Source of the DNA: Escherichia coli
Lineage (GTDB): Bacteria; Pseudomonadota; Gammaproteobacteria; Enterobacterales; Enterobacteriaceae
Direction: 5' to 3' (one strand)
Assembly (NCBI RefSeq): GCF_016903815.1
Contig: NZ_CP069973.1
Length of the DNA stretch: 64,000 nt
This document shows positions 11,913 through 57,433 of the stretch, piece by piece (the stretch's first letter is position 1; every line of letters starts with the position of its first letter). Both the position numbers and the translations under genes were made by a program. The notes under the pieces were generated by a model. That model was not told where the DNA came from. It made no database searches and worked only from the letters and a program-made list of their open reading frames with translations.

Positions 11913-11970
11913 TCCACAAAAAAGCCCGCCTGAACCGGCGGGCTGTCATAACACTGTGTTACCTGGCTAA

Positions 11971-12570
11971 TCAGAATTTATAACCGACACCCACGATGAA
12001 ACCGTCAGTGCGCCAGTCACCACTGCCGGAGCCTTCATAAGCAATATCAATGGCCACGGATTCGGTCGGGTTAAACTGCACGCCAGCCCCCCACGCCAGA
12101 GACGTGTTGCTGTGGCGACCGTCATCACTTCCGGTCAGCACATCGTGCGTTTTCCCCTTGCTGTCAGTTACGCGGAGATAATCCCCGGAAAAAGTTGAAA
12201 CACGGCTGTAAGCCACACCTGCCATCGCATAAGCACTGAACCATTCATTCACGCGTACAGACGGCCCCGCCATCATGCTGAACCAGCGGTTACGCACTGA
12301 ATCTTCATGCCAGCGGGTATCGCTGTAATGCGTTTTTTGCTCATCTTTGGCATTGGCATAACTGAATGACGTCACCAGCCCCAGCGTGTCCGTAAATTCA
12401 TAACGGTATTTCACGTTAATGCCCTTCAGGTCATCGTTGCCGGGCATATCAGTATGGGTCTGAAGATACCCGGCGCTTAGTGTGGACTGATGCTCTGCTG
12501 CGCTCGCTGGCGTACCAGCGGCGACCAGCCAGACTACTGTGGACAGAATAACAGCACATAATTTACGCAT
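11971..12570 (-). CDS. lom: Outer membrane protein Lom (Ail/Lom family)
   Basis: 199-aa ORF with signal peptide, beta-barrel pattern and C-terminal ...GVGYKF; position after J as in lambda. Confidence 0.85.
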   Translation of the reverse strand: MRKLCAVILSTVVWLVAAGTPASAAEHQSTLSAGYLQTHTDMPGNDDLKGINVKYRYEFTDTLGLVTSFSYANAKDEQKTHYSDTRWHEDSVRNRWFSMMAGPSVRVNEWFSAYAMAGVAYSRVSTFSGDYLRVTDSKGKTHDVLTGSDDGRHSNTSLAWGAGVQFNPTESVAIDIAYEGSGSGDWRTDGFIVGVGYKF

Positions 12571-12637
12571 AATTACCTCTCGCTTTTCTGCAATAAAAAA
12601 GGCGCCATTTCTGGCGCCCGTATCTGGGTTATAAAAT

Positions 12638-15600
12638 TCAGCTAATCGTGATGCCTGCAGTGGCTTTCTTCATCACAACAACCAGCAAATCGCTGATACT
12701 TGCTGTGGGATACCAGCCATTTACCCACCATGCTGATACAGAAAACTCCAGTGTCATTACGCCACTGCCTGCAGGCATATCAATAACACCCGTGTAAATC
12801 AGAGTATTATCCAGAGCCGTTCGGTTATAAATTTCAGCCCCGTTTTTCTTCACTATCAGGCGGCATGACGAATAAGTATCGCTATTCTCCCGTTCATGTC
12901 TGGCACCGCTGAAAGCCACCGCTGGAATAACAATTTGCCGGTCAAACGGCTGATCGTCATAAACCCTGACGGTAATGGTCCCTGATGGCCACCGCTCCGG
13001 TGCACGGGAGTCCCGGGGGAAAGCTTTGCCCACTGTTTTAACGAGATCGCCTTCAATCTGGTTCGCGGACAGTTTTCCCAGAACCCGACAGTTCTCGTTA
13101 ATCGTGACGTTGTTGAGCGTCCCGGAGTTCGCATTCACGCTACCGCTGATATCGGCATTTTTCGCCGTCAGTCGCCCGTCCGGTGTCAGGGAAAATGCCG
13201 GAGGATTACCGCCGCTGGTAATGGTGGGAGCCGTCAGATATTTCAGGAACACTTCATTCATGAATATCTGATCGCCCTGACCAACAAACATCGGCTTTGT
13301 GTTGCCATTCGCAGGATTAATCATCGCAATCCTGTCCGCCGCCAGCAGCACCTGACTCTGCATGCCGTCGGGGGTGTTCTCAATACCGGCACCGATACCC
13401 GCAATATAAAGGCGTCCGTCCTGCATCTGCTGCAGCTTCACTGCCCACATGCTGTTCAGGTTATTATTTGTATCAACCTGAACCTTCTGTATCTGCTGGA
13501 TCGCTGCACTCTGGTCTTCCAGTTTCTTATTGACGGTCTGCGTGATTTCATTGCTGACATCCGTAATGGACGTCCTGATTTCAGCCAGGTCAGGCGCAAG
13601 CTGACCGTTATCAATCTGCGTCCACAGCTCCTGAGCCAGATGGGTTTTCCCTATCTCGCCTTTGAAAAAATCCAGATAGCCGGATGCATCATCACTCGGC
13701 TGACCAACAGCCTCCACGAATGCCGATTTGCCAACGGTGTTCACACTGCGAACGTAAAAATAATAATCATGGCCCGGTTTGATATTGATACTGGCGGCTA
13801 TCCAGTACAGCCCCGTGCCAAGATAGCTGGCTGTGGTTTCAACCTGCCTGATATCGGTAATCCGCTTTTCCGAGAACCAGAACTCAAACTGTACCGTCGG
13901 GTCATAAACGGCAAGATGCGGCGTGGCGGTTATCTGAAAATACCCCGGCGTCAGCTCAATCCGCGACGGTGCTACCGGTGCGGCAATCCGGAACGATACC
14001 GACGCCGGATCGCCCTGCTGTCCCCACGCATTTACCGCCCGGACTGTCAGCGTGTACCGCCCCAGCGCCAGTTGCGTGAAGCGGTATGTGGTTTCCGTCG
14101 TCCGGGCCGTGCTGACCAGCCGCTCACTGCCGTCATCCGCTGCCACGGTCAGGCGAAGCAGGAAGCTCACGCCCTTCACCACCTTCGGCGTGTCCCAGCG
14201 CGCCAGCACCTGATATTCCCCGCTGTCTGCGGTGACTTCGGCGGTCAGGTGCTGCACCGCTGGCGGCGTGACACCATTCACCGTGCCGCTCTGGTCGCCG
14301 TCAAAGTGCGCCCCGTTATCCACGATGGCTTCTTTTTCCGGTACATGCTGCACGGCAGTGATGGCATACGTGCCGTCATCGTTCTCACGGATACTCACAC
14401 AGCGGAACAGGCGCTGGCGCAGCGTCGGCAGCTTCAGCCCCCACACACTGTATTCTGCAACGCCGTCAGGAACCCGGTTCACTTTCACCTTAAGTCCGTC
14501 GGTGACGGACTGAACCTCCACGCTGACCGGATTACCACTTCCGTCAACCAGGCTTATCAGCGTGGTACCGGAGGATGGCAGCGTGATTTCACGGTCGAGC
14601 GTCAGCGTCCGGGTCTGGCTGTTCACCGCCAGCACGCGACCACCGGTGCTGATACCGGCATAGTCATCATCACAGATTTCAATGACATCGCCCGGTACAT
14701 GGCGAAGCCCTTCGGCACCCACGCTGAAGTCCACGGTCTGCGTTTCCAGCAGTTCCGTTTTAATCAGCCACAGCCCGGCGCGGTGCGCCTGCCCCCGGCT
14801 GGTACAGCCAAAGGCATCCATCTTCGTGACGTTACGACCGTAACGGAGAATGGCCTGCGTATCTTCAACAAGCTCTGTCGCCGTCTCCCAGCCGTTATCC
14901 GGGTCAATCCAGTTCACCTCAACGGCATTATGGCGGTCCTTCAGGGCGCTGAAGCTGTAGCGGAACGGCGCGCCATCATCCGGCATCACCACATTACTGT
15001 GGTTATAGGTCCACACCTTATCCGACGGTCGGTCCTGCACGAACGTCAGCGTCTGCCCGTTCCATACCAGCATACAGCGCATCGCCGAACAGAAATCACT
15101 GAGCACATCCCACGCCTTGCGCTGTGTGGTCAGGTACGCATTACAGGTGATGCGCGGCTCCGTGCCGCCAAAGCCGTCCGGCACTGACTGGTCGCAGTAC
15201 TGGCCGATGACATACAGCGCCCATTTGTCCACATCCGCCGCACCAAGACGTTTCCCCATGCCGTAGCGTGGATGGGTCAGCATATCCCACAGACACCAGG
15301 CCATGTTATTGCTGTATGCTGGCTTAAACGTTCCGTCCCAGATACCGCTGTATTGCCGAGTCTGCGGGTTATAGTTCGATGGCACCTGCAGAATGCGCCC
15401 GCGAAGATGATAATTACGGCTCACCTGCTGGCTGCCGAACTGTTCCGAGTCCACCTGCACGCCGACCAGTGCCGTGTTCGGGTAGCACTGTTTCACATCG
15501 ATGATTTCAGTGTATGACGACCAGAGCGTTTTGTTCTGCAGCTGGTCTGTGGTGCTGTCCGGCGTCATCCTGCGCATCCGGATATTAAACGGGCGCGGCG

Positions 15601-16117
15601 GCAGGTTATCCACCACAACCGAGGCCAGATACTGTGAAGTGGTTTTACCCTTAATGGTGATGTCTTTTTCCGTCACCCAGCCACCGTTACGTTGTATCTG
15701 AACCAGCAGGCGGACTTCCGATGGATTCCTGTCCCCCTTTGAGGTGGTTTCCACCAGTGCCTGCACGCCGAAAGTAAAACGCAGACGGTCAATGTTTGCC
15801 GACGTGATGGTCCGGGTTATCGGCGTGTCATATTTCACTTCTGTACCGAGCACCGTCTCGGAGCCGGAGGATTCAAATCCCTCCGGCGGTGTCTGCTCCT
15901 GCTCACCGGCCCGGAACACCACCGTGACGCCGGATATATTGGTATTCCCCTCACTGTCCAGCACCGGCGTACTGTTCAGCAGCACGCTTTTTAATCCATC
16001 CACCGGACCTTCAACCGGCCCTTCGCTGATGGCATCGATCACACTCAGCAGCTGCGTGGACTTCAGGTTGTCCTTCGCTTCGCGCGGGGTATGCCCCTTA
16101 CTGCTGCCTTTACCCAT
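12638..16117 (-). CDS. J: Tail tip host specificity protein J
   Basis: 1159-aa ORF collinear with lambda gpJ, following I. Confidence 0.9.
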
Positions 16118-16177
16118 TCGTCATGCTCCATAAACGATAAAACCGCCCGGAGGCGGTTTCACATAAAACATTTTGCA

Positions 16178-16819
16178 TCAGCGACCAATCACCACAACCT
16201 GACCACCATCCCCTTCGTCTGCCGTGCTGATCTCCTGAGAAACCACGCGTGACCCCACGCGCATTTCACCGTACAGAACCGGCAGAACATTGCCCTGGGC
16301 AACCATGTTATCCAGTGAAGAAAAATAGGTGTTCTGTTTGCCGTTATCCGTTGTCTGTGTGCGGGGAGTTCTGGGTTTAGGGGCCAGCATCTGTGCAACA
16401 CCGCCAAGCGTCATACTGGCACCGAGAGAAAACAGCAGATTACTCGCCATAATTCCTACCCCCGGCATCCATATAGCAACCGCCATAACAGCCGCCCCCA
16501 GCACAGCCTGAAACACACCGCCACTTTTGGCTCCTGCCAGACGCGGCACGATATGGATCACGGCACCATTTTCCAGCGGCTCATTAAGACGGGCAGACAA
16601 TTCGGTTTCACCTGCATCACGCCCGGCAATGCGTACCTGGTACCAGCCGTCGCTCAGTTTCTGACGAAATGCCGGGATCTGCATGGCCAGCGCCCGGATG
16701 GCTTCGGCCCCCGTTTTCACTCGAAGGTCGATGCGGCGGCCAAATCGTTGTAAATCCCCGTAAAGGCAGATGCGTGCCATGCCCGGTGACGCCAGAGGGA
16801 GTGTGTGCGTCGCTGCCAT
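16178..16819 (-). CDS. I: Tail assembly protein I
   Basis: 213-aa ORF, lambda gpI-like, overlapping K as in lambda. Confidence 0.85.
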   Translation of the reverse strand: MAATHTLPLASPGMARICLYGDLQRFGRRIDLRVKTGAEAIRALAMQIPAFRQKLSDGWYQVRIAGRDAGETELSARLNEPLENGAVIHIVPRLAGAKSGGVFQAVLGAAVMAVAIWMPGVGIMASNLLFSLGASMTLGGVAQMLAPKPRTPRTQTTDNGKQNTYFSSLDNMVAQGNVLPVLYGEMRVGSRVVSQEISTADEGDGGQVVVIGR

Positions 16820-17460
16820 TTGTCGGTGTACCTCTCTCGTTTGCTCAGTTGTTCAGGAATATGGTGCAGCAGCTCGCTGTCACCACAGTAAATGGCGGCA
16901 TGATTCGGCACCGATGAACCAAAACAGCACAGCAGCACATCGCCCGGCTGCGCCGCTGACAGCGGCACCTGATACAGCCCTGCGGCCTCCAGATTATCCA
17001 GATAGAGATTCTGACCGTTACGCCACCAGTCATCCTCACGATGAAAATCCGGCATCTCAATCCCCGCCAGATGGTAAGCATCCCGGAACAGCGTGTAACA
17101 GTCCGTCACCCCGTGCTCAAAGAGCCGCCCGGTGAGATGCGGCACACAGCGGAATTTATGAATCGCCCCCCGGCAGACCAGCCACCACGGCAAATCACTC
17201 TGCACCTGCAACCGCCGGTCGGCCTCACTCAGCCAGGGCAGACCACCGGGATGGCTGTGCACCAGCGCCACAATCTCACCCTGCATTTCTGCCCGCAGCC
17301 AGTCCTCCGGCGACATCCGGAAATACGCCTCCGGCTCACCGGAGATATTTACGCAGGGAAGATATCTGTCTCCCTCCGGCGTTCTCACCACAAAGCCGCA
17401 CGACTCCGCTGGCGCACATCGCCGGGCGTGCGCCAGAATCGCTGATTCTGTCTCTGTCAT
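16717..17460 (-). CDS. K: Tail assembly protein K (NlpC/P60 and JAB-like)
   Basis: MTETESAILAHARRCAPAESCGFV... with HSHP motif; lambda gpK-like. Confidence 0.85.
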   Translation of the reverse strand: MTETESAILAHARRCAPAESCGFVVRTPEGDRYLPCVNISGEPEAYFRMSPEDWLRAEMQGEIVALVHSHPGGLPWLSEADRRLQVQSDLPWWLVCRGAIHKFRCVPHLTGRLFEHGVTDCYTLFRDAYHLAGIEMPDFHREDDWWRNGQNLYLDNLEAAGLYQVPLSAAQPGDVLLCCFGSSVPNHAAIYCGDSELLHHIPEQLSKRERYTDKWQRRTHSLWRHRAWHASAFTGIYNDLAAASTFE

Positions 17461-17465
17461 GGGAT

Positions 17466-18164
17466 TTACTGCGAAAGTTTGTTAATGGAAAGGAAGCCGC
17501 CAAAGTTGCCGACGTTATTGCGAAACTTACAGCCACTCAGGCATTTGCTGCATTTATCCTTCGTGATATCGGTTGTCGGCTGGTCATATTCATCCGCGAC
17601 AGCCGGACCGTGATAACCGCACTCATCACCGCGATAGGTCCAGGTGCAGGTGTTGGCCAGCATGATACGTCCCGGAAAAACAGCGCCATCCGTTTCCGTC
17701 GGCGTGGACAGTACAAAGGAGGCACTGACCGCGCTCAGTTCGCTGCACTGCTCGATGCGCCAGCGGCTGATCACCTCCTGCTCCGGATCGGCGTCGCTGT
17801 TTCCGTTGACGAAGTTCACCGCATCCAGAAAACGGGCATAAACCTTACGCCTGACCACCGTTCCGCCGACCAGACTCTGCAGGTCTTCCGCCATCCCGGT
17901 GACCATACCGTACAGGTTAGAAACCGTCAGCGTGGGGCGCGTACTGGTACCTTTGCCATTCAGTTCGAAACCACTCCCCTGAATGGGATACGCCTGATAC
18001 TGTCGCCCCTGCCAGGTGACCGGCTCACCTTTTTCGTTCTGCTCATTACAGAAAAAATAACGTTCTCCACCAACCTCTGTCAGATCGATTTCCCAGAGCA
18101 CCACGCAGGCAGACTGCTCCGCACGGGTGCATTCATTCAGTGTTTCCTGTCGGATATCCTGCAT
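17466..18164 (-). CDS. L: Minor tail protein L
   Basis: 232-aa ORF, lambda gpL-like, with Cys cluster near the C-terminus. Confidence 0.9.
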   Translation of the reverse strand: MQDIRQETLNECTRAEQSACVVLWEIDLTEVGGERYFFCNEQNEKGEPVTWQGRQYQAYPIQGSGFELNGKGTSTRPTLTVSNLYGMVTGMAEDLQSLVGGTVVRRKVYARFLDAVNFVNGNSDADPEQEVISRWRIEQCSELSAVSASFVLSTPTETDGAVFPGRIMLANTCTWTYRGDECGYHGPAVADEYDQPTTDITKDKCSKCLSGCKFRNNVGNFGGFLSINKLSQ

Positions 18165-18493
18165 CAGTTCACCACCTGTTCAAACTCTGCGCTGAACTCA
18201 ACACGCAGCATACTGACCCGCGACGACCATTTTGCGCAGGTCACCTTTATCTGCCGCCACTCATAAGGCGGCGTCCACAGAAAGGCTTTCCAGCCCCCGT
18301 GCTCTTCCAGAAACGACTCCAGTACCGTGGCCTCCTCACGGGGGACAGAAAGCGTCACGCTGTACGTTTTCAGGTTGGCATTCAGCCCGGCAGGCGCTCG
18401 CTGGGAATAGCCATCACCAAAGCGCACCTTTCTTACAGAAGGGGCCGAAGCCACATCCATACCGGGTTTCACTTTCCAGCGGAAGGTTTTCAT
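18164..18493 (-). CDS. M: Minor tail protein M
   Basis: 109-aa ORF, lambda gpM-like, between H and L. Confidence 0.9.
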   Translation of the reverse strand: MKTFRWKVKPGMDVASAPSVRKVRFGDGYSQRAPAGLNANLKTYSVTLSVPREEATVLESFLEEHGGWKAFLWTPPYEWRQIKVTCAKWSSRVSMLRVEFSAEFEQVVN

Positions 18494-21051
18494 CGTCCAC
18501 CTCCGGAGAACAGGCCACCATCACGCATCTGTGTCTGAATTTCATCACGGGCACCCTTGCGGGCCATGTCATACACTGCCTTCATCATCTGTGGACCTGG
18601 CAGACCATTCGTACCGTCGTTCTGAATCACCACGTGATTGTTCTGATTAAAATTAATGCCTTCAGCCCGCCGCATCTGCGCCGGACTTCCGGCACCGCCC
18701 ACATAACCACCTTCCGCATAGCCCCGCATCAGGCGGTACAGGTTGCCGACACCAATCCGGCTGGTTGCCTCCTTCGTGAAGACAAATTCACCACGGTGAA
18801 CAATCCCCGCTGGCTCATATTTGCCGCCGGTTCCCGTAAATCCCCCGGTCGCAAAATGGAATTTCGCCGCAGCGGCCTGAATGGCTGTACCGCCTGACGC
18901 GGATGCTCCACCACTGGCAGCACCGCCAATGGCGCTGCCGATACTCCCGACAATCCCCACCATTGCCTGCTTAAGCAGAATTTCTGTCATCATGGACAGC
19001 ACGGAACGGGTGAAGCTGCGCCAGTTCTGCTCACTGCCGGTCAGCATCGCCGCCATATTCTGTGCAATACCATCAAAGGTCTGCGTGGCTGCACTTTTAA
19101 CCTGCGACATACTGTCCGTGGCGCTCTCTTCCCACTCACTCCAGCCGGACTTCAGGCCTGCCATCCAGTTCCCGCGAAGCTGGTCTTCAGCCGCCCAGGT
19201 CTTTTTCTGCTCTGACATGACGTTATTCAGCGCCAGCGGATTATCGCCATACTGTTCCTTCAGGCGCTGTTCCGTGGCTTCCCGTTCTGCCTGCCGGTCA
19301 GTCAGCCCCCGGCTTTTCGCATCAATGGCGGCCCGTTTTGCCCGTTGCTGCTGTGCGAATTTATCCGCCTGCTGCGCCAGCGCGTTCAGGCGCTCCTGAT
19401 ACGTAACCTTGTCGCCAAGTGCAGCCAGCTGGCGTTTGTACTCCAGCGTCTCATCTTTATGCGCCAGCAGGGATTTCTCCTGTGCAGACAGCTGGCGACG
19501 TTGCGCCGCCTCCTCCAGTACCGCGAACTGACTCTCCGCCTTCCACAAATCCCGGCGCTGCTGGCTGATTTTCTCATTTGCTCCGGCATGCTTCTCCAGC
19601 GTCCGGAGTTCAGCCTGAAGCGTCAGCAGGGCAGCATGAGCATTGTCTTCCTGACGATCGCCCGCAGACACCTTCACGCCGGACTGTTTCGGCTTTTTCA
19701 GCGTCGCTTCATAATCCTTTTTCGCCGCCGCCATCAGCGTGTTGTAATCTGCCTGCAGAATTTTCCCGTCCTTCAGTGCCTTATTCAGTTCTTCCTGACG
19801 GGCGGTATATTTCTCCAGCGGCGTCTGCAGCCGTTCGTAAGCCTTCTGCGCCTCTTCGGTATATTTCAGCCGTGACGCTTCGGTATCGCTCTGCTGCTGC
19901 GCATTTTTGTCCTGTTGAGTCTGCTGCTCAGCCTTCTTTCGGGCGGCTTCAAGCGCAAGACGGGCCTTTTCACGATCATCCCAGTAACGCGCCCGCGCTT
20001 CATCGTTAACAAAATAATCATCCTTGCGCAGATTCCAGATGTCGTCTGCTTTCTTAAACGCAGCCTCTGCCTTAATCAGCATCTCCTGCGCGGTATCAGG
20101 ACGACCAATATCCAGCACCGCATCCCACATGGATTTGAATGCCCGTGCAGTCCTGTCTGCCCAGGTCTCCAGCGTGCCCATGTTCTCTTTCAGGCGGCGG
20201 GTCTGGTCATCAAACCCTTTCGTTGCGGCCTCGTTCGCTGCCTGCAATGCCCCGGCCTCATCGCCGGAACGCTGCAACTGAGCAACATACGCAATCTGCT
20301 CCGCCGTCACGTTATGGAACTGGCGCGCCATCGCCGTCAGCCCCGACGTCGGGTCTGTGGTCAGCTTCCCGAAGGCTTCAGCGACCTTGTCCACCTCCAC
20401 GCCGGATGCAGAGGAGAAACGCGCCACACTCTGGCTGATGGACGCAATCTGAGCCTCACCGCTTACTCCCGCCTTAACCAGTGCGCTGAGTGACTCGCTG
20501 GTCTGGTTAAACGTCAGCCCTGCCGCCTGCCCGGCTCTGGACAGGACCAGCATACGATCTGCCGTCAGACCCGACTGATTGCCGGAAAGGACCAGCGTTT
20601 TGTTGAAATCGGACAGGGTTGAGTTGCCCTGATACCAGGCATACGCCAGCGCACCGGTCGCCACCGCCAGCGAGGTGGCCCCGACCATCGGCAGGGTGAT
20701 CGCACCGGCAAGCCCCCGGAACATGGGGATCATCCCGCCGAAGGAGTCCTTCACCTGCCCCCCCTGTTGCAGCAGGATCAGCCACGGACTTTGCCCGCCT
20801 GCAAGCTGCGTGGCCACGTCGGTGAACTGTGCAGGCAGCATACGCATGGCGGCTTTATACTGCCCGACGGAAATCCCCGCTTTCTGTGCAGCCAGCGCCT
20901 GTCGGCTCAGCGACTGTTCAACGACTGCCGCTGTTTTTTTCGCATCACTTTCCGTACCGGAAAAATGACGCCTGACTCTGGCCATCTGCTCGTCAAATCT
21001 GGCCGCATCCAGACTTAAATCAACGACCAGATCGCCTACCGGTTCAGCCAT
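18490..21051 (-). CDS. H: Tail tape measure protein H
   Basis: 853-aa ORF, same length as lambda gpH; coiled-coil rich with a Gly-rich segment. Confidence 0.9.
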   Translation of the reverse strand: MAEPVGDLVVDLSLDAARFDEQMARVRRHFSGTESDAKKTAAVVEQSLSRQALAAQKAGISVGQYKAAMRMLPAQFTDVATQLAGGQSPWLILLQQGGQVKDSFGGMIPMFRGLAGAITLPMVGATSLAVATGALAYAWYQGNSTLSDFNKTLVLSGNQSGLTADRMLVLSRAGQAAGLTFNQTSESLSALVKAGVSGEAQIASISQSVARFSSASGVEVDKVAEAFGKLTTDPTSGLTAMARQFHNVTAEQIAYVAQLQRSGDEAGALQAANEAATKGFDDQTRRLKENMGTLETWADRTARAFKSMWDAVLDIGRPDTAQEMLIKAEAAFKKADDIWNLRKDDYFVNDEARARYWDDREKARLALEAARKKAEQQTQQDKNAQQQSDTEASRLKYTEEAQKAYERLQTPLEKYTARQEELNKALKDGKILQADYNTLMAAAKKDYEATLKKPKQSGVKVSAGDRQEDNAHAALLTLQAELRTLEKHAGANEKISQQRRDLWKAESQFAVLEEAAQRRQLSAQEKSLLAHKDETLEYKRQLAALGDKVTYQERLNALAQQADKFAQQQRAKRAAIDAKSRGLTDRQAEREATEQRLKEQYGDNPLALNNVMSEQKKTWAAEDQLRGNWMAGLKSGWSEWEESATDSMSQVKSAATQTFDGIAQNMAAMLTGSEQNWRSFTRSVLSMMTEILLKQAMVGIVGSIGSAIGGAASGGASASGGTAIQAAAAKFHFATGGFTGTGGKYEPAGIVHRGEFVFTKEATSRIGVGNLYRLMRGYAEGGYVGGAGSPAQMRRAEGINFNQNNHVVIQNDGTNGLPGPQMMKAVYDMARKGARDEIQTQMRDGGLFSGGGR

Positions 21052-21478
21052 ACCGGACTCCTCCTGCGATCCCTTCTGATACTGTCATCAGCATTACGTC
21101 ATCCTCCGTCATGTCCGCCACATCCGGGGAAGCGGGGATAACTTCATTCCCGTCCGGGCCAAAGCGGACACCTCCGGCAAGCCCTGCCGCTTTCTGCATC
21201 AGCACATCATCTTCAGGCTCTTCGTCAGCCTCACGCCGGTTCAGCAGACTGAAATCCAGCGGATGCATATCCGGATCGCTGAAAAACAGGCTGAGCACGG
21301 TGTACGTCAGCCCGGAAAAGTGCATATCCAGCAGAACATCATGAAAATAATGGGTACTGTAAAAGCGGTGCCAGTCGGCATACTCCGTGGATGACATCCC
21401 GGCAAGCATGGCACGCCAGTCGGGTCGCCCCATCTCACGCGCCAGTTTCAGGGCAAAACTCAGCTCACCGTCGAACAC
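21044..21478 (-). CDS. T: Tail assembly chaperone T-frame (expressed as G-T fusion by -1 frameshift)
   Basis: ORF in the -1 frame relative to G, overlapping the G 3' end where the GGGAAAG slippery heptamer lies. Confidence 0.75.
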   Translation of the reverse strand: MFDGELSFALKLAREMGRPDWRAMLAGMSSTEYADWHRFYSTHYFHDVLLDMHFSGLTYTVLSLFFSDPDMHPLDFSLLNRREADEEPEDDVLMQKAAGLAGGVRFGPDGNEVIPASPDVADMTEDDVMLMTVSEGIAGGVRYG

Positions 21479-21882
21479 TTTCCCGCAGAAACAGGCTCTG
21501 CGGGCCCGGCGTCCTCTGTCTGTTCAGGGGCATTATTCACCACAAACTCATACATACCAGACAGCCGGTACACCACGTTTTCAGCATGAGAAATTGCCTC
21601 CGTGGGCCAGGTGGTAAGCACTTCCTGCTCAATCTGTTTAACGGCTTCATTCATGGACGGCATCTGCGTCTTCTGCGGATGGTTATGCCACAGGGACATC
21701 GCCACCAGAAACGCGCCGGTTCTGATGGCGTCTTCCACAGTAAACTTCCGGTTGCTGTCTGACTCCGCCTGTTCTGCCTGCCGTTTCATCAGGGCGAGAT
21801 GCTCAATGCGCTGCAGGGCTGACAGTTCAGAAAGCGTGACGGTCACACCGTTATGTTCAAATGATTCGGTTTTCAGGAACAT
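21460..21882 (-). CDS. G: Tail assembly chaperone G
   Basis: 140-aa ORF MFLKTESFEHNGVTVTLSELSALQRIEHLAL..., lambda gpG-like. Confidence 0.9.
   Translation of the reverse strand: MFLKTESFEHNGVTVTLSELSALQRIEHLALMKRQAEQAESDSNRKFTVEDAIRTGAFLVAMSLWHNHPQKTQMPSMNEAVKQIEQEVLTTWPTEAISHAENVVYRLSGMYEFVVNNAPEQTEDAGPAEPVSAGKCSTVS
21476..21482 (-). other. Programmed -1 ribosomal frameshift slippery site GGGAAAG (G to G-T)
   Basis: Minus-strand GGGAAAG a few codons before the G stop, exactly as in lambda G/GT. Confidence 0.75.
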
Positions 21883-21897
21883 CGCTGACTCTCCGGA

Positions 21898-22638
21898 TTA
21901 ACTGGCGGTGACGGTAATTTCTGCAACCGCAGCAAACTCACCATTACCGGATACAACCGGAATGTTGACCTTGCCTGCAGCAACGCCGTTCACGGTGATG
22001 GTCATACCACTGACCGACACGGTGGCTTTTGTTTTATCCGCAGACACCGCACGAAAGCTCTTGTCGGTTACGCCCTCCGGCTGGAAGGCCACGGTCAGCG
22101 TGGTGCTCTGCCCTTTCACCACCGAGGTGCTGGCAGGCGTCACGGTCATGCCGGTTGCCGCTGTTACCGTGCTGCGATCTTCTGCCATCGACGGACGTCC
22201 CACATTGGTGACTTTCACCGTGCGGGTGATCACTTCCTTCGCCGTCACCGCCTTACCGATACTGCTGACCCAGCCACGGAACACATCGACCGTGCCGTTC
22301 GGGAAGCGGATTTTATAGGCACGGGTATCGCCTTCATTAAACCACGCCAGCAGCGCCTGCTGCCCCTGCTCTCCGGGCATCCACGCCAGCGTGAAGCTGG
22401 TATCTCCGGCAGATTTCTGCCCCTGCCCGGTCGCAGTCCAGTCTGCATCTTCATCATCGAGATAGCTGTCGTCATAGGACTCAGCGGTCAGTTCGCCGGG
22501 CGTCAGGTCTTTAACTTTTGCCAGACGCGACCAGTCAACGTCTGAAAGCGGATTCGCATAAGGGTCACCGCTCCCCTTATAAACCCACAGTGTGGTCCCG
22601 GCACCTTTCACCGGCATTGTTGGATTTGGTACAGGCAT
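21898..22638 (-). CDS. V: Major tail protein V
   Basis: [22 protein letters not shown]... with C-terminal Ig-like domain; start taken at the internal Met matching lambda gpV. Confidence 0.9.
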
Positions 22639-22645
22639 AGCGTCC

Positions 22646-23041
22646 TCACATTTCATAGGTAATGACATAAGTCAGATCGGCTGAACTCCACAGGCCCGCA
22701 TCATCGTCGCGCCGGTAGTCATAGCCACTGGCCACCATACTGGTGATCAAATCTGACAGTGCCGGGATATCGCTCATCACCGGATAAATCCGGGACTCCA
22801 TCCACGAATCCAGCTCTGAATCCGGCACCTGAGCAGGCAGGAAAACTTCAATATGCAGCTCCGCCTGCCAGGTATCGCTGTCCAGCTCTTCGCCCGTGTA
22901 TTCAGCGCCGGTGAGATAAACGGCAATTGCCGGAAAATCCGCCTCATCAAAAACAGCGGGGCGACCATCAAAAAGCGTCGCCCCGGTGTCATGCTTCTCC
23001 AGTGCATCCAGTACGGCTGCACGGAGTTCAGTATGTTTCAT
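22646..23041 (-). CDS. U: Tail terminator protein U
   Basis: 131-aa ORF, lambda gpU-like. Confidence 0.9.
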
Positions 23042-23616
23042 CGCTTTATTACCATTCTCAGTTGATGCTGCAGCGCATAGCCCAGCTCTTTCGGAAGACG
23101 TTCACGCCGTATCCGTTCAATATTCTGTTTAAACGCCGTGGTAAGCGGCACCGCCATCGGGATTTTCACCACATCAATGGGGTAACGGTTTTTCCCGGCC
23201 ACACGCTGCATGACATGCCACCGCCCATTTTTCAGTTGCTGAATAAACGCGCCGGGAATACGACGGTTACCCACCACAAGCACGCTGCCGCCACCTTTCA
23301 GGGATGAACGCTGCCCCTTTTTACGACGCCTGCGGCGGGACAGGACAACCCGCGCATTACCCAGCTTGATTACGGGCAAATCCCCCCGGTTAACTTTGAT
23401 TCTGGCCTGCGGGTTTTTGACCGTGGCCCTTTTCAGCCTGGCCCTTTCCTTTACCAGTTTCCGGCGTACCTTTGTCTCACGGGCAACCTGTGACGCCGAC
23501 TGCGATATCGCGGATGAAGCAACGCGGTTAATGGCCATTGCGGCGGCACCGGGCACCGCCGTTTTGCTGATACGGCTGAGGTTTTCAACGGCCTGCTCAA
23601 GACCTTTTATGGCCAT
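23038..23616 (-). CDS. Z: Tail completion protein Z
   Basis: 192-aa ORF, lambda gpZ-like. Confidence 0.9.
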   Translation of the reverse strand: MAIKGLEQAVENLSRISKTAVPGAAAMAINRVASSAISQSASQVARETKVRRKLVKERARLKRATVKNPQARIKVNRGDLPVIKLGNARVVLSRRRRRKKGQRSSLKGGGSVLVVGNRRIPGAFIQQLKNGRWHVMQRVAGKNRYPIDVVKIPMAVPLTTAFKQNIERIRRERLPKELGYALQHQLRMVIKR

Positions 23617-23627
23617 ACATCCCCCTT

Positions 23628-23981
23628 TCAGCGGCGACGGTTAACGGCAGGCGGCACGCCCCGTCCAAGCCAGAGATGACAGCTTCCGCCATCATCCGGC
23701 GAAACCCGATCTACCCAGAAATTTTCCTCACCGATGGTCAGCGTGTCTCCACGCCGCAGCTGCCGCACCTCATCAGTCCGGACAAACAGGGACGGGCTGG
23801 AGCCTTCAACGCGCACGCCCTGTCCGGCATAGCTGATATTTTCAGGGTCATCAAAAACACCACGTATCACCGCACCGGACTGCTCACCGGATGTAATGGT
23901 GGCTGACGTTCCCATGTACCCGCGTATCGTTTCATCGGCGCGGGCAATGGCAGCATCGAACAGGTTATCGAAATCAGCCAC
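23628..23981 (-). CDS. FII: Head-tail joining protein FII
   Basis: 117-aa ORF, lambda gpFII-like. Confidence 0.9.
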   Translation of the reverse strand: MADFDNLFDAAIARADETIRGYMGTSATITSGEQSGAVIRGVFDDPENISYAGQGVRVEGSSPSLFVRTDEVRQLRRGDTLTIGEENFWVDRVSPDDGGSCHLWLGRGVPPAVNRRR

Positions 23982-23992
23982 AGCGCCTCCCG

Positions 23993-24391
23993 TTATTGCA
24001 TTCTGGCCAGGCCGCGCTCTGTCATTTCGGCTGCCACACCGGCAGAGACACGAAACGCCGTTCCCGGCAGCACAAATGCCACAGCCTCATCCCGCGTGGC
24101 GTGAAGTGCATCAGTATGCAGCTTCACCAGTGCCACGACCGTGACCAGTTCAGACGTATCCAGAATCACGGTATCCGGCTGCGCTGATCCCACCTCATTT
24201 TCATGTCCGGTCAGCACATTTTCCCGGCTGAGAGGGGTGTCCTGACCGGCAGTTTCATCCGTGTCATCAAGCTCCTCTTCCAGCTCTGCCACACGGAGCG
24301 CCAGTTCTTCTTTCGTCCCCGTCAGGCTGACATCACGGTTCAGTTGTTCACCCAGCGAGCGGAGACGGGCAATCAGTTCATCTTTCGTCAT
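23993..24391 (-). CDS. FI: DNA packaging protein FI
   Basis: MTKDELIARLRSLGEQLNRDVSLTG..., lambda gpFI-like; start taken at the internal Met. Confidence 0.85.
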   Translation of the reverse strand: MTKDELIARLRSLGEQLNRDVSLTGTKEELALRVAELEEELDDTDETAGQDTPLSRENVLTGHENEVGSAQPDTVILDTSELVTVVALVKLHTDALHATRDEAVAFVLPGTAFRVSAGVAAEMTERGLARMQ

Positions 24392-24432
24392 GGACTCCTC
24401 CACAGAGAAACAATGGCCCCGAAGGGCCATGA

Positions 24433-25458
24433 TTACGCCAGTTGTACGGACACGAACTCATCAGGGTCAGCCAGCAGCATCAGCGGTGCTGACTGAATCA
24501 TGGTGAACTCACGCGCCGGATCGCCGGTGGTCACCCAGTTTTTCGGGTAACGGGCAGAGGCGTTAATGCCTTCGCGCTGTGCGTCCGCATCCTGAATGCA
24601 GCCATAGGTGCGCAGACCGCGTGCCTGAGTGTTCCCCAGCACCATCGTGTTGTCCGGCAGGAAGTTCTTTTTGACGCCGTTTTCCACGTACTGTCCGGAA
24701 TACACGACGATGGCCACATCGCCATACATCCCCTTATAGGACACCGCTTTACCTAGGTCTTTCACCGCTGTCTCCAGCTCGGAATGAGAGCCGCGACGAG
24801 TATCCAGCTTCTCCTTGACGGCTTTGAAGGAACGGAACAGCGCCCAGCCTTTCGGATCGAACACGATGATATTCACCACACCGCTGGCGTTCAGCGCGTA
24901 GGCTTCGATATCGTCGGTCGGGTCATACGTGGACTTGTCACGCTTGCTCCACTCCGTGCCGCCGGACTGCGTGATGTTATTCTCCTCACTGCGGCCCATA
25001 TCCACCTCAACCGGATCGAAGGCTTCACCGGTCATGGTGTATTTGCCCTTAAGCACGGCAGAAACTGCCTGCATCTCTTCGACCTGAGCAATGGCCAGCT
25101 CTTCGTCACGCATGTTCTGCATGATGATGCGACGGCGGCGGTAAGCCGGGTCCGCCAGATTCTGCGGATCTTCATCCGGCAGGCGACGCAGGGTCATCTG
25201 CGGATTCACTTCATGCTTCGGCTTGACATATCCCGGCGTAAATTCAGAGGTGGAGCCGCCACGGGAACGGATAACCTCACCGGAAACAATCGGCGAAACG
25301 TACAGCGCCATGTTTACCAGTCCCGGAATTTGTGAGAGATAGACTTTCTCCGTAGTGAAGGGATAGCTCTCACGGAAAAAGAGACGCAGAAACAGCGGAT
25401 CAAACTTAAATTTCTGCTCATTTGCCGCCAGCAGCTGGGCGGTTGTGTACATCGACAT
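24433..25458 (-). CDS. E: Major capsid protein E
   Basis: 341-aa ORF, same length as lambda gpE. Confidence 0.9.
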   Translation of the reverse strand: MSMYTTAQLLAANEQKFKFDPLFLRLFFRESYPFTTEKVYLSQIPGLVNMALYVSPIVSGEVIRSRGGSTSEFTPGYVKPKHEVNPQMTLRRLPDEDPQNLADPAYRRRRIIMQNMRDEELAIAQVEEMQAVSAVLKGKYTMTGEAFDPVEVDMGRSEENNITQSGGTEWSKRDKSTYDPTDDIEAYALNASGVVNIIVFDPKGWALFRSFKAVKEKLDTRRGSHSELETAVKDLGKAVSYKGMYGDVAIVVYSGQYVENGVKKNFLPDNTMVLGNTQARGLRTYGCIQDADAQREGINASARYPKNWVTTGDPAREFTMIQSAPLMLLADPDEFVSVQLA

Positions 25459-25512
25459 AAAAAAATCCCGTAAAAAAGCCGCACAGGCGGCCTTTAGTGA
25501 TGAAGGGTAAAG

Positions 25513-25845
25513 TTAAACGATGCTGATTGCCGTTCCGGCAAACGCGGTCCGTTTTTTCGTCTCGTCGCTGGCAGCCTCCGGCCAGAGCACATCCTCATAA
25601 CGGAACGAGCCGGACTTGTAGAACGTCAGTGTGGTGCTGGTCTGGTCAGCAGCAACTGCAAGAATGCCAACGGCAGCACCGTCGGTGGTGCCATCCCACG
25701 CAACCAGCTTACGGGTGGAGGTGTCCAGCATCAGCGGGGTCATTGCAGGCGCTTTCGCACTCAATCCGCCGGGCGCGGTTGCGGTATGAGCCGGGTCACT
25801 GTTGCCCAGCGGCTGGTAATGGGTAAAGGTTTCTTTGCTCGTCAT
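25513..25845 (-). CDS. D: Head decoration protein D
   Basis: [27 protein letters not shown]..., lambda gpD-like. Confidence 0.9.
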
Positions 25846-25854
25846 AAACATCCC

Positions 25855-27154
25855 TTACACTGGTGTGTTCAGCAAATCGTTAACGGCATCAGATGCCGGG
25901 TTACCTGCAGCCAGCGGTGCCGGTGCCCCCTGCATCAGACGATCCAGCGCAGTGTCACTGCGCGTCTGTGCACTCTGTGGTGCTGCGGCCAGAATACGGC
26001 GGGCCGTTTCCACGGTCATACCAGGGGTTTCGGCCAGCACGCATGCCTGTTCTTCGCGTCCGTGAGCCTCCTCACAGTTGAGGATCCCCATAATGCGACT
26101 GTTTTCTGCCGCAACCGCTGCGGTGATCTGCGCGTTCACGTCCGGCTGCGCAGCGCTGGCGTTCTCGCCCTCCGTCGCTTGCACCACGCCAGTAACGTCA
26201 GCCTGCGAAGCAGTGGCTGAAACAGTTGTTGATTGAGTCTCTTTGGTCATTCGCCCTCCTGAGAGACGGGATTTACGTGCATCCAGTGCATCACGCATGA
26301 CGGTGATCGCATCGGTACTGTTCACAAGTTCATCAGCCAGTCCGGCATCAATGGCCTCCTGACCGCTGTACACTGCAGCCTCGGTATCCAGCACAGCCTG
26401 CACGTACAGGCCGGTATATGCCGACACCTTCTGTGCAAACATCCGGCGGGTTGCATCCATCCGGGACTGCAGTGTTTCCCGGACATCATCCGGTAGATGG
26501 CTGTAGGGGTTGCCATCCACCTTATGGCTGCCGCTGTAAATCAGCGTGATTTCCACGCCCTGTTTCTCCAGCGCAGCACCGTAATTACTGTGAGCCATCA
26601 TGACGCCGATGGAGCCTGTCCGGGCGGTCTGCGTGACCAGACGCCGGGAGGCGGCGCTGGCAAGCAGCTGACCTGCACTGCAGTTCATGTCGTTGGCCAG
26701 CGCCCATACCGGTTTTATGTCTCGCACACGGGCGATGATGTCAGCACAGTCAAATGCTCCCGCCACCATCCCGCCCGGTGTGTCCATATCCAGCAGAATG
26801 CCGTCCACCATCGGATCGCTGGCAGCCTGTTGCAGACGGGCGATAATGCCGTTGTAACCGGTCATTCCCGAATACGGCTGCAGCGCCCGCGTCCGGCTGA
26901 CCAGCGTACCGGACACCGGCAGCACGGCGATGCCGTTCATGACCTGATAACTGCGGGCCTGTCGTGGTCCGTCATCATCACCGGATAACGCCAGCGCCGC
27001 GGGTGCCTCTCCGGCAATCAGGCTGTCGCCGGATACTGCATCCGTCAGGCGGCTGATCCCAAGCTGGCCTGCAAGCGCACAAAAGAAAACCCGCGCATAG
27101 GCGGGTTCAAGCATCAGCGGCTCATTAAAAGCCATGCTGGCAATATGCGGGAGA

Positions 27155-27174
<20 letters not shown>
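25855..27174 (-). CDS. C: Capsid assembly protease C (with nested scaffold Nu3 frame)
   Basis: ClpP/SppA-like serine protease; probable GTG start at 27174 giving lambda-like N-terminus TAELRNLPHIASMAF; overlaps the B 3' end by about 20 nt as in lambda. Confidence 0.8.
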
Positions 27175-30855
<3,681 letters not shown>

Positions 30856-30881
<26 letters not shown>

Positions 30882-31401
30882 TCAGCAACCCCGGTATCAG
30901 TTCATCCAGCGCGGCTGCTTTGTTCATGGCTTTGATGATATCCCGTTTCAGGAAATCAACATGTCGGTTTTCCAGTTCCGGAAAACGCCGCTGCACCGAC
31001 AGGGGGATCCCGTCGAGAATACTGGCAATTTCACCTGCGATCCGCGACAGCACGAAAGTACAGAATGCGGTTTCCACCACTTCAGCGGAGTCTCTGGCAT
31101 TTTTCAGCTCCTGTGCGTCGGCCTGTGCACGCGTAAGTCGGTGGCGTTCGTACTCAATAGTCCCTGGCTGGAGATCTGTCTCGCTGGCCTGCCGCAGTTC
31201 TTCAACTTCCCGGCGCAGCTTTTCGTTCTCAATTTCAGCATCCCTTTCGGCATACCATTTTATAACGGCGGCAGAGTCATAAAGCACCTCATTACCCTTG
31301 CCACCGCCTCGCAGAACGGGCATTCCCTGTTCCTGCCAGTTCTGAATGGTACGGATACTCGCACCGAAAATGTCAGCCAGCTGCTTTTTGTTGACTTCCA
31401 T
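30856..31401 (-). CDS. nu1: Terminase small subunit Nu1
   Basis: MEVNKKQLADIFGASIRTIQNWQEQGMPV..., 181 aa, winged-helix DNA-binding; adjacent to cos. Confidence 0.9.
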
Positions 31402-31578
31402 TGTTCATTCCACGGCCAAAAACAGAGAAAGGAAACGACAGAGGCCCAAAAGTTCGTTTTCAGCACCTGTCGTTTCCTTTCTTTTCAGGGGGTATTTTAA
31501 ATAAAAACATTAAGTTACGACGAAGAAGAACGGAAACGCCTTAAACCGGAAAATTTTCATAAATAGCGAAAACCCGCG

Positions 31579-31590
31579 AGGTCGCCGCCC
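31579..31590 (-). other. cosN 12-nt cohesive end (GGGCGGCGACCT on the minus strand) within the cos region of about 31420..31650
   Basis: Plus strand reads aggtcgccgccc; flanking sequence matches the lambda left and right ends in reverse complement (recalled from the lambda sequence). Confidence 0.8.
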
Positions 31591-31789
31591 CGTAACCTGT
31601 CGGATCACCGGAAAGGACCCGTAAAGTGATAATGATTATCATCTACATATCACAACGTGCGTGGAGGCCATCAAACCACGTCAAATAATCAATTATGACG
31701 CAGGTATCGTATTAATTGATCTGCATCAACTTAACGTAAAAACAACTTCAGACAATACAAATCAGCGACACTGAATACGGGGCAACCTC

Positions 31790-32023
31790 ATGTCAACGAA
31801 GAACAGAACCCGCAGAACAACAACCCGCAACATCCGCTTTCCTAACCAAATGATTGAACAAATTAACATCGCTCTTGAGCAAAAAGGGTCCGGGAATTTC
31901 TCAGCCTGGGTCATTGAAGCCTGCCGCCGGAGACTGTGCTCAGAAAAAAGAGTTTCTTCTGAAGCAAACAAAGAAAAGAGTGACATTACTGAATTGCTCA
32001 GAAAACAGGTCAGACCAGATTGA
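31790..32023 (+). CDS. ynfO: Small basic prophage protein, YnfO-like
   Basis: 77-aa ORF between cos and ydfO, the position of Qin ynfO; family assignment from memory. Confidence 0.55.
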   Translation: MSTKNRTRRTTTRNIRFPNQMIEQINIALEQKGSGNFSAWVIEACRRRLCSEKRVSSEANKEKSDITELLRKQVRPD

Positions 32024-32065
32024 AGCAATTTAGATAATCGTGCAGACTACGCCCCCTCATATCAC

Positions 32066-34064: not shown

Positions 34065-35088
<1,024 letters not shown>

Positions 35089-35092
<4 letters not shown>

Positions 35093-36010: not shown

Positions 36011-36119
36011 TTGATTTTATTAGTAACAAGTATTTTTTATATTTTAATAATATATTTAAAGCAGATAAATAAATATCCTCCGGCATAGCCGGAGGTTTTT
36101 CAAATGCGCCTATAAGGCT

Positions 36120-36810
36120 CTCTTACCAGCCGCGCCCTAACAGGCGCACACGATCTGACATTTGCATCCAACTTCGTTACTTACGGCCCGTAAACGGGCT
36201 GCCCGGATAGGGAATCGATAACTGCTCTCCCATTTTATCCTCTTCAAGCTGGTGCTTTATGTAATCCTGTATCTTCGCCGTGTTCTTACCCACTGTATCG
36301 ACGTAGTACCCTCTGCACCAGAACTCCCTGTTCCTGTATTTGAATTTCAAATCACCAAACTGCTCGTAAAGCATCAGACTGCTTTTCCCTTTCAGATATC
36401 CCATAAACCCGGATACGCTCATTTTGGGCGGGATCTCCACAAGCATATGGATATGATCTGCACAGCATTCAGCTTCCAGAATCCGTACGCTTTTCCACTC
36501 ACACAGCTTTCTCAAAATACTGCCTATTGCTCTACGCTTCTCTCTGTAGAACACCTGTCTTCGGTATTTTGGCGCAAAAACTATGTGATATTTACAGTTC
36601 CATCGGGTGTGCGCTAAGCTCTTTTCGTTCCCCATTGGGACCCCCTTTTGATTTCTTGTTTGACACTTGCAGTTGCCAGACCGCAAGGTGTTTTAACAAA
36701 TCAAAAGGGGTTTTAATAACTGGCTCAAAGCTGAAAGCTTTCCGGAACCCCCAGCCTAGCTGGGGGTTTTCTGTGCACAATAAAAAACCCGCCTGAGCGG
36801 GTTTGAGATT
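36120..36810 (-). mobile_element. IS200-like insertion sequence (approximate bounds)
   Basis: 152-aa Y1 transposase with hairpins upstream (acccccagcctagctgggggtttt, aacccgcctgagcgggttt); about 0.7 kb, typical of IS200. Confidence 0.55.
36177..36635 (-). CDS. tnpA: IS200/IS605-family transposase TnpA (Y1 HUH)
   Basis: MGNEKSLAHTRWNCKYHIVFAPKYRRQ...HIHMLVEIPPK...; HUH motif (HIHML) and catalytic Tyr region. Confidence 0.85.
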   Translation of the reverse strand: MGNEKSLAHTRWNCKYHIVFAPKYRRQVFYREKRRAIGSILRKLCEWKSVRILEAECCADHIHMLVEIPPKMSVSGFMGYLKGKSSLMLYEQFGDLKFKYRNREFWCRGYYVDTVGKNTAKIQDYIKHQLEEDKMGEQLSIPYPGSPFTGRK

Positions 36811-54692: not shown

Positions 54693-54792
54693 CTAAAAGC
54701 CACACTAACGTAACCGGCTCATTTAAACCGTCTGGTCTGTTTCCTCCGGCTCTACAAAAATAATGTCCATCATTTTTAATGGACACTATCGT

Positions 54793-55440
54793 ATGAAACA
54801 CCGGACCTGGATCACTGAAGCTTTACGTCTTCACTTTGAAGAACATTTACCCCGGGTTGTGGCCGGGCGTCGCCTGGGTGTACCAAAATCAACAGTTTGT
54901 AGTATGTTCGTGCGCTTTCGGAGAGCTGGCCTTTCGTGGCCTTTGCCCGCAGGCATGTCGGAGCAGGAACTTGATGCCTGCCTTTACGGACAATTTTCCA
55001 CGGTACCAGTCGTACGTCCTGAAAGCACCGTTATATCCGAAGCCCCCGTGGTAAAAAAACGTCCCCGGCGGCCCAACTTCCCTTATGAGTTTAAAATCGC
55101 CTTAGTGGAGCAGTCACTGCAGCCCGGAGCCTGTGTGGCGCAGATCGCCCGGGAAAACGGAATCAACGATAACCTGCTCTTCAACTGGCGCCATCAATAC
55201 CGGAAAGGTGGCCTGCTGCCTTCCGGAAAAAATATGCCGGCACTGCTTCCCGTGACGTTAACGCCGGAGCCGGATAATAAAATCCCGGCCCCCGCACAGG
55301 AACCAGAGCAGATAAATACACCGTCCGACAGTCTGTGTTGTGAGCTGGTTCTGCCGGCCGGAACTCTCAGGCTTAAAGGTAAACTGACGCCGGCGTTATT
55401 ACAGACACTTATCCGCGAAATAAAAGGGAGCAGCCACTGA
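54793..55440 (+). CDS. IS66-family accessory protein TnpA
   Basis: HTH-containing ORF with KRPRRPNFPYEFKIALVEQSL...; start uncertain (54763 or 54793). Confidence 0.7.
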   Translation: MKHRTWITEALRLHFEEHLPRVVAGRRLGVPKSTVCSMFVRFRRAGLSWPLPAGMSEQELDACLYGQFSTVPVVRPESTVISEAPVVKKRPRRPNFPYEFKIALVEQSLQPGACVAQIARENGINDNLLFNWRHQYRKGGLLPSGKNMPALLPVTLTPEPDNKIPAPAQEPEQINTPSDSLCCELVLPAGTLRLKGKLTPALLQTLIREIKGSSH

Positions 55441-55787
55441 TGATATCTCTCCCTGCAGGTTCGCGTATCTGGCTGGTTGCAGGTATCACCGATATGCGAA
55501 ATGGCTTTAACGGCCTGGCATCAAAAGTTCAGAACGTCCTGAAGGATGACCCGTTCTCCGGACACCTGTTCATCTTCCGCGGACGCCGGGGTGACCAGAT
55601 AAAAGTGTTGTGGGCTGACAGTGACGGACTGTGCCTCTTCACCAAACGCCTGGAGCGGGGCCGCTTCGTCTGGCCAGTCACCCGTGACGGCAAGGTGCAC
55701 CTTACTCCGGCTCAGTTATCCATGCTTCTTGAAGGTATCAACTGGAAGCACCCGAAACGAACGGAACGCGCTGGAATCCGCATATAA
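55440..55787 (+). CDS. IS66-family accessory protein TnpB
   Basis: 115-aa ORF MISLPAGSRIWLVAGITDMRNGFNGLA... Confidence 0.85.
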   Translation: MISLPAGSRIWLVAGITDMRNGFNGLASKVQNVLKDDPFSGHLFIFRGRRGDQIKVLWADSDGLCLFTKRLERGRFVWPVTRDGKVHLTPAQLSMLLEGINWKHPKRTERAGIRI

Positions 55788-55806
55788 CCCGTTGTAAAGT
55801 GAGGAT

Positions 55807-57378: not shown

Positions 57379-57433
57379 ATATCAATACGGTTCTGACGAG
57401 TCGCTTACACACTAACTAATGAGAGAAGTTGAA

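Follow-up and report, generated by a model that had tools for sequence, protein, structure and literature searches.

Organization of the cos region

The sequence analysed, referred to below as the window, is a stretch of 64,000 nucleotides from an Escherichia coli chromosome that was collinear with positions 1789535-1853534 of E. coli strain 7/2 (NZ_CP023820.1). It contains a lambda-type cos site located between the terminase genes of a prophage and a divergently oriented copy of ynfO. The genes on the two sides of cos were as follows.

31790..32023, plus strand: ynfO (YlcI/YnfO family, 77 aa), divergent from cos; lambda homology stops within its 3' part (~31927-31952)
30856..31401, minus strand: Nu1 (annotated nohA), terminase small subunit, 181 aa, 98.9 % identical to lambda
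28956..30881, minus strand: gene A, terminase large subunit, 641 aa, three conservative differences from lambda (99.5 % identity)
16723..28959, minus strand: W, B, C/Nu3, D, E, FI, FII, Z, U, V, G, T, H, M, L and K, head and tail genes of the lambda type

The window was aligned base by base to the circularised lambda junction (reference NC_001416), the minus strand of the window corresponding to the plus strand of lambda and the cos being the circular-junction form of the two lambda ends. An exact search located the cohesive-end 12-mer GGGCGGCGACCT in a single copy at 31579..31590 on the minus strand, precisely where the original prediction had placed it. Taken alone the 12-mer is weak evidence (shuffled sequences gave 0.28 matches with one mismatch allowed). 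A 55-nt block spanning cosQ, cosN and I2 was identical to lambda at 31566..31620 (minus strand) and had no match in 100 shuffles, even at three mismatches. A chance match was therefore rejected on the basis of this block and of the lambda-aligned flanks of 18 kb and 362 bp. On the terminase side window positions 13621-31590 aligned to lambda 18002-1 with 96.7 % identity, and on the other side positions 31591-31952 aligned to lambda 48502-48141 (362 bp). Within these flanks, lambda 48167-48502 together with 1-72 formed a stretch of 408 bp without any difference in the window.

The Nu1 start codon was found at window position 31401 (lambda 191), 177 bp beyond the last base of the 12-mer and 189 bp from the nick on the top strand, in agreement with the distance of about 180 bp expected beforehand. 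It had also been proposed that the cos joins the packaging genes to the end of the late region. The cos does adjoin intact Nu1 and A genes, but the late side is lambda-like for 362 bp only, to lambda 48141, and is of the Qin type beyond that point (ynfO, ydfO, gnsB, cspI, rzpQ, rrrQ, essD). Relative to the lambda reference (NC_001416, 48446-48502 and 1-190), the late region upstream of 48141 with bor, Rz, R and S is thus replaced in the window by Qin-type genes. The lambda record itself contains an unannotated open reading frame of the YlcI/YnfO family next to cos (64 aa, complement 48109-48303). Its first 49 residues are the same as those of the YnfO of the window, and the homology boundary (lambda ~48141-48166) falls inside the 3' part of the frame.

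Subsites of cos

Work by the Feiss laboratory on the cos of lambda places the Nu1 start codon at bp 191 and cosQ, cosN and cosB together on a fragment of 238 bp, lambda 48446-182 (PMC9026076, PMC4856287, PMC4669245). The cosQ subsite acts in packaging termination (PMC4669245, PMC4856287), and I2 (bp 18-50) is an AT-rich bent segment that is needed early in packaging and fixes the distance between cosN and cosB (PMC4856287). Within cosB, R3 (bp 50-65, contacts at 55-63) is the critical site for TerS (Nu1), R2 and R1 share a common 16-bp sequence, and I1 is located between R3 and R2 (PMC9026076, PMC4856287, PMC4669245). The coordinates of R3 were taken from PMC9026076 and from the depositor's annotation of the phage 434 record, while those of I1 (bp 74-86) were taken from the same annotation and a scan with the IHF consensus. 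Each of these elements was present in the window.

31614..31620, minus strand: cosQ (GGGTCCT), exactly lambda 48473-48479; the 23-bp spacer to the nick is also identical to lambda
31579..31590, minus strand: cosN cohesive end GGGCGGCGACCT; the symmetric flanking bases are those of lambda
31591/31590 (top strand) and 31579/31578 (bottom strand): predicted cosN nicks
31541..31573, minus strand: I2 spacer, identical to lambda bp 18-50
31526..31541, minus strand: cosB R3, identical to lambda bp 50-65
31505..31517, minus strand: cosB I1, core for IHF binding, identical to lambda bp 74-86; the other strand reads AAACATTAAGTTA
31467..31482, minus strand: cosB R2, a 16-mer identical to lambda bp 109-124, in the opposite orientation to R3 and R1
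31426..31441, minus strand: cosB R1, accessory TerS site, a 16-mer identical to lambda bp 151-166

The order R3-I1-R2(inverted)-R1 is that of lambda and the three 16-mers and the IHF core were exact. The distance from cosN to R3 is also unchanged, as bp 1-72 are identical and free of insertions or deletions. The alignment therefore contained no substitution in cosN or in the binding sites of cosB, which were the places where a change would have spoken against the original prediction. The description of the site as essentially identical to lambda holds for every named subsite but is slightly overstated for the spacers between them, given an identity of ~97 % over the equivalent of the 48446-182 fragment. 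These results support the assignment of the feature as a cos of lambda specificity (cosQ-cosN-I2-cosB) with all of its subsites unaltered.

Spacer differences from lambda and natural variation

From bp 73 to the Nu1 start codon seven positions differed from lambda, every one of them in a spacer.

Window 31518: lambda 73, A to G, one base outside the I1 core
Window 31489: lambda 102, T to C
Window 31457: lambda 134, G to A
No window position: lambda 138, deleted
Window 31453: lambda 139, G to A
Window 31447: lambda 145, T to G
Window 31416: lambda 176, T to G

The deletion is the sole change in spacing, giving a gap between R2 and R1 of 25 bp, compared with 26 bp in lambda. Phage 434 and PhiR26_1, both viable, carry all seven alleles of the window including the deletion at 138. 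The cos of phage 434 (OL657226.1) differed from that of the window at bp 23, 53, 99 and 151, and the cosB of PhiR26_1 was 99.5 % identical over 211 bp, differing at bp 151, while upstream of its cosN 9 of 120 bp differed. Since the differences are confined to spacers and are all natural alleles of viable phages, a damaged cosB was rejected.

A scan of viral contigs, for which the pattern was anchored on cosQ and cosN, found 119 cos sites, and 44 of these (37 distinct) had a cosB of the lambda type. Among the 37 distinct sites the window alleles were found with varying frequency: 73G in 28, 102C in 25, 134A in 23, the deletion at 138 in all 37, 139A in five, and 145G and 176G in 15 each. At bp 138 it is the lambda reference that is the outlier and not the window, because the deletion was present in 37 of 37 distinct natural lambda-type sites. 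The extra G of lambda is likewise missing from phage 434, PhiR26_1, the K-12 Qin prophage and the window. In lambda the corresponding stretch of the R2-R1 spacer (lambda bp 134-145, window 31447-31457) reads GAGGCTTTTTGGCCTC, a 5-bp inverted repeat that is absent from the natural allele. In the comparison of window 31183-31998 with lambda, the 408-bp patch without differences sits in arms that are ~96.7 % identical and is followed at bp 73-190 by alleles of the 434 type, and this pattern suggests a mosaic junction right inside cosB.

The remaining 75 of the 119 sites had identical cosQ and cosN sequences and an unrelated cosB. Consequently cosN alone does not define packaging specificity, and cosB and Nu1 were therefore checked as well. 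No exact copy of the window cos was found among the 119 viral-contig sites, the nearest having two differences over 238 bp. Four viral contigs carried two complete convergent cosQ-cosN units within 939 bp. In these pairs one unit had a phage-type cosB with repeated R-like sequences, and the other had a right flank of the GGTGGTGGTGG type followed by an ATG ~140 nt from the nick. The convergent pairs were located as follows.

L008, 1363-2301
L041, 917-1855
L049, 317-1255
L063, 11512-12450

In complete E. coli chromosomes the 581-bp cos region of the window was found at 100 % identity many times over, in hundreds of sequenced ones. Of 5426 complete genomes, 4632 had a cos of the lambda type, and the median number per genome was two. 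As identical and lambda-type copies are so widespread, the cos region is an ordinary one and already annotated. The identity across many genomes reflects clonal descent and is not proof of function.

Terminase and morphogenetic genes

Nu1 differed from the lambda protein only by A75T and L132I, both outside the N-terminal winged-helix domain. Residues 1-74 were identical, including the recognition helix (aa 17-24) and the wing (aa 31-39). The genes from W to K were all full length with 96-100 % amino-acid identity to lambda, the major capsid protein being 99.7 % identical to lambda E. Identity to lambda decreased further along the arm to 81 % for I and 82 % for J, and lom was divergent. The side tail-fibre gene (9531-11912) forms one open reading frame of 793 aa in the window, while PGAP annotated the identical sequence as two pieces, a pseudogene with a partial N-terminal domain and a 'head spike fiber' protein. 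This gene contains an internal direct repeat (~10920-11183 and 11111-11372) with 81 % identity.

A Qin-family prophage

The prophage that carries the cos belongs to the Qin family. Its int end abuts rspB and it contains both the late and the early Qin gene set (dicA/C/B, relBE, hokD, ydfT, essQ/D, rrrQ, rzpQ, cspI, gnsB, ydfO, ynfO and nohA). The gene order was taken from the PGAP annotation of the identical segment in strain 2779. It begins with rspB, int, ISCro1, xis, a RecE-like exonuclease gene, ydfD, dicB and the dicA-like and dicC genes, and continues with the replication module, cargo genes (QueH and a KwaB-like protein), ydfW, flxA, relBE, hokD, rem and ydfU. These are followed by ydfT (Q), cspF, cspB, IS200C, essD, ydfR, rrrQ, rzpQ, cspI, gnsB, ydfO and ynfO, and then by cos, nohA (Nu1), A and onward.

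The Qin prophage of K-12 (MG1655) was 99.85-99.97 % identical to the window over 11.5 kb (window 30873-43105), cos included, with the IS200C of the window as the sole interruption. The likeness extends from Nu1/nohA to ydfW and takes in cos, ynfO, the lysis genes, Q and relBE, and the locus at the int side is also rspB. The K-12 cos, located between nohA and ynfO (MG1655 ~1,636.4-1,636.8 kb), differed from that of the window at two positions over 238 bp. K-12 Qin has an A at bp 54 within R3, where the window and lambda both have a G. The A allele was also present in seven of the 37 natural lambda-type sites. K-12 Qin stops inside the Nu1/A boundary. It has therefore lost A and the genes that follow as far as the tail fibres, nohA being fused beside stfQ, whereas the window retains the whole lambda-like morphogenetic arm. 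The IS200C, the ISCro1 and the inverted tail end are peculiar to the window in this comparison. Judged by its sequence, the element is the un-deleted form of the cryptic Qin prophage of K-12, and the feature under study is already known as the Qin-family version of the lambda cos.

From int through to the tail fibres the window was collinear with a full Qin-like phage genome, PhiR42_1 (PV340562.1). PhiR42_1 lacks the two IS elements, and its immunity region, its nin cargo and its tail fibres are its own. The nin cargo of the window (44718-47231), unlike that of PhiR42_1, consists of a protein with a KwaB-like domain (Kiwa anti-phage; 44718-45740), a hypothetical protein (45743-46357) and a QueH-like epoxyqueuosine reductase (46566-47231). 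The window also has an ISNCY transposase fragment (~43191-44213), which it shares with the viable phage PhiR42_1. A literature search returned nothing on the PhiR phage series or on the Qin nohA cryptic prophage.

Inversion between the Qin-locus and Rac-locus prophages

Homologous prophages are known to give rise to large inversions in E. coli. The two ends of the window matched two different prophages of strain 2779. Positions 10690-64000 were 100 % identical to its Qin-locus prophage, which ends as in K-12 with tail fibres, pinQ, ydfK, ynfT, attR and a truncated ydfJ. Positions 1-16571 matched, also at 100 % identity, the Rac-locus prophage, a pac-type element, over its tail end and the sitABCD, uspF and ompN genes that come after it. 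The left flank of the Qin-locus prophage of strain 2779 did not match the window. In strain 2779 the two stretches lie ~216 kb apart in inverted orientation, and the arrangement in the window is accordingly an inversion product. The overlap of the two matches defines the crossover.

10690..16571: crossover interval comprising part of the tail fibre gene, lom, J and part of I, identical in both parental prophages of strain 2779

The crossover thus took place in an identical tail module of 5.9 kb (tail fibre, lom, J and I). It swapped the distal tail-fibre end and took the cognate attR away. Both types of junction were found at 100 % identity in complete genomes, for example the window type in strain 103 and the canonical type in strain 222, two strains with the same genome length of 5,162,123 bp. 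By these sequence comparisons the inversion is recent and has probably been recurrent. It is evidently reversible, given that near-identical genomes contain one or the other junction type at 100 % identity, and a culture may thus include some cells with the canonical, excisable arrangement. The sitABCD genes, coding an iron/manganese transporter (2602-6051), are cargo carried at the end of the Rac-locus prophage, with the tail-fibre end of the prophage on one side and uspF-ompN on the other. The inversion has placed them downstream of the lambda-type cos in the direction of packaging.

Attachment sites, IS elements and genome length

Three features of the window bear on excision and late transcription.

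58752..58762: attL core GAAATCCATAA, 11 bp, common to the attP of PhiR42_1 and the attR of strain 2779
54714..57407, plus strand: ISCro1 (IS66 family; tnpA, tnpB, transposase), with an 8-bp target duplication ACACTAAC, absent from the viable phage PhiR42_1
~36074..36778: IS200C, between Q (ydfT) with the cspF/cspB cargo and the holin gene essD, absent from PhiR42_1 and K-12 Qin

No second exact att core was found in the 64-kb window, and the P' arm was also absent from it. The cognate attR adjoins ydfJ in strain 2779. ISCro1 was inserted in the 19-bp spacer between xis and int, ~22 bp before the int start codon, leaving both xis (54441-54692) and int (57434-58714) at full length. Its position would separate int from xis and from upstream promoters and transcription, and may thereby affect int expression. 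IS200C lies in the leader of the late operon, where it may affect Q-antiterminated late transcription. It is located just upstream of a terminator-like hairpin.

In the canonical arrangement the distance between the att cores is ~52.7 kb (~109 % of lambda), or ~49.3 kb without the two IS elements. Feiss et al. 1977 are said to have found that lambda heads take roughly 78-105 % of 48.5 kb (~38-51 kb). With this capacity of ~105 % and a capsid 99.7 % identical to lambda E, a genome of 52.7 kb would be at or above the head limit. In strain 7/2 the next ~59 kb downstream, in the direction of packaging, contained no match to cosN or to cosQ-cosN, and packaging in situ would therefore proceed without a termination site.

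The original prediction had taken the cos as a sign of a packaging-competent genome arrangement, provided that the rest was intact. The part of that claim that rests on the genes stands, as cos, Nu1 and A are intact and W to K are full length. The arrangement itself is that of a hybrid prophage with neither a cognate attR nor a P' arm, with two IS elements, with a length of ~52.7 kb even in the canonical form and with no second cos. Packaging competence is thus not supported by the sequence for the orientation seen in the window. Because of the inversion, the two IS elements and the lack of a second cos within a headful, the prophage in its present arrangement is unlikely to yield packaged genomes of its own.

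Interpretation of the site

The features described above are, in our assessment, very probably those of the cos of a Qin-family lambdoid prophage that has lambda packaging specificity and is stranded in its present chromosomal arrangement. A different reading is that the site belongs to a fully inducible prophage, capable of excision, replication, cutting from cos to cos and packaging. Such a prophage would be expected to have an intact cos and intact terminase, head and tail genes from Nu1 to K, as well as full-length xis and int genes, all of which are present, and it has viable close relatives in PhiR42_1 and PhiR26_1. Homologous re-inversion can also restore the canonical arrangement. This reading nevertheless appears unlikely given that the cognate attR and the P' arm are missing in the arrangement of the window, that ISCro1 cuts int from xis and the upstream promoters while IS200C sits in the late leader, and that even the canonical form would have to fit ~52.7 kb, or ~109 % of lambda, into a capsid 99.7 % identical to that of lambda.

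The acquisition of IS elements and the rearrangement of the host prophage could also be taken to indicate a decaying relic whose cos has drifted beyond recognition by terminase, and the K-12 Qin copy is already altered inside R3 at bp 54. With zero substitutions in cosQ, cosN, I2, R3, the I1 core, R2 and R1, with every spacer difference an allele of viable phages, and with the cognate Nu1 and A genes intact, we regard this as very improbable. The cos sites of PICIs combine lambda-like cosQ and cosN with a lack of R sequences and have rpp downstream (PMC9026076). A site of that type, recognised by an Rpp-TerS heterodimer, gains some plausibility from the 75 of 119 viral-contig sites in which the same cosQ and cosN are joined to an unrelated cosB, showing that cosN alone is not decisive. 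The likelihood of a hijacker cos in the window is nonetheless close to nil, as I1 and all three R sequences of lambda occur in exact form and the downstream genes are Nu1 and then A rather than rpp. Specificity of either the PICI or the phage 21 type was rejected on the grounds that the R sites are exactly those of lambda and that the DNA-binding domain of Nu1 is identical.

A stranded cos of lambda specificity carries little weight as a discovery, the lambda cos being a textbook site and the present copy that of the Qin family. It does hold a lesson for annotation in that a perfect cos with its terminase genes does not make a prophage packaging-competent. Calls of packaging competence need to be checked for att sites, IS insertions, genome length and inversions between prophages, and cosQ with cosN is insufficient to identify packaging specificity.

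Proposed mechanism

The proposed function of the site follows the lambda paradigm (PMC4669245, PMC4856287, PMC9026076), to which the window contributes the sequences of the cis elements and the intact terminase genes. IHF would bend the DNA at I1 and Nu1 dimers would bind R3 and R2 across the bend. Nu1 would then anchor gpA on cosN, where gpA is predicted to nick the two strands 12 nt apart, at 31591/31590 on the top strand and 31579/31578 on the bottom strand. Terminase would remain bound to the end on the Nu1 side, which would dock on a prohead, and translocation of the DNA would proceed toward Nu1, then A and later J, in the direction of decreasing window coordinates. As termination needs a downstream cosQ and cosN, the cosQ at 31614-31620 would serve only when the cos is met as a terminating site.

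We infer that this cos would be cleaved if terminase were expressed. In the present chromosome the likeliest results of such expression would be nothing at all or an abortive, one-ended packaging. A third outcome, normal function, would be expected only in cells that had flipped back to the canonical arrangement. Sternberg and Weisberg 1975 reportedly obtained 'doc' particles from non-excised lambda prophages, which would be comparable to one-ended packaging.

The most interesting by-product of the analysis is the inversion between the Rac-locus and Qin-locus prophages that joins the cos arm to sitABCD. It is conceivable, if rather improbable, that recombination at the 5.9-kb module works as a reversible switch spanning the replication terminus, with one orientation tying the cos and the packaging arm to their own attR and so leaving the prophage potentially excisable, and the other tying them to sitABCD-uspF-ompN such that terminase would run from cos into the sit locus. 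Were this the case, the terminase of this prophage or of a lambda-type helper would start at cos and traverse the tail genes into the sit locus, and one-ended ('doc'-like) or transducing particles with a virulence-associated iron/manganese transporter could result.
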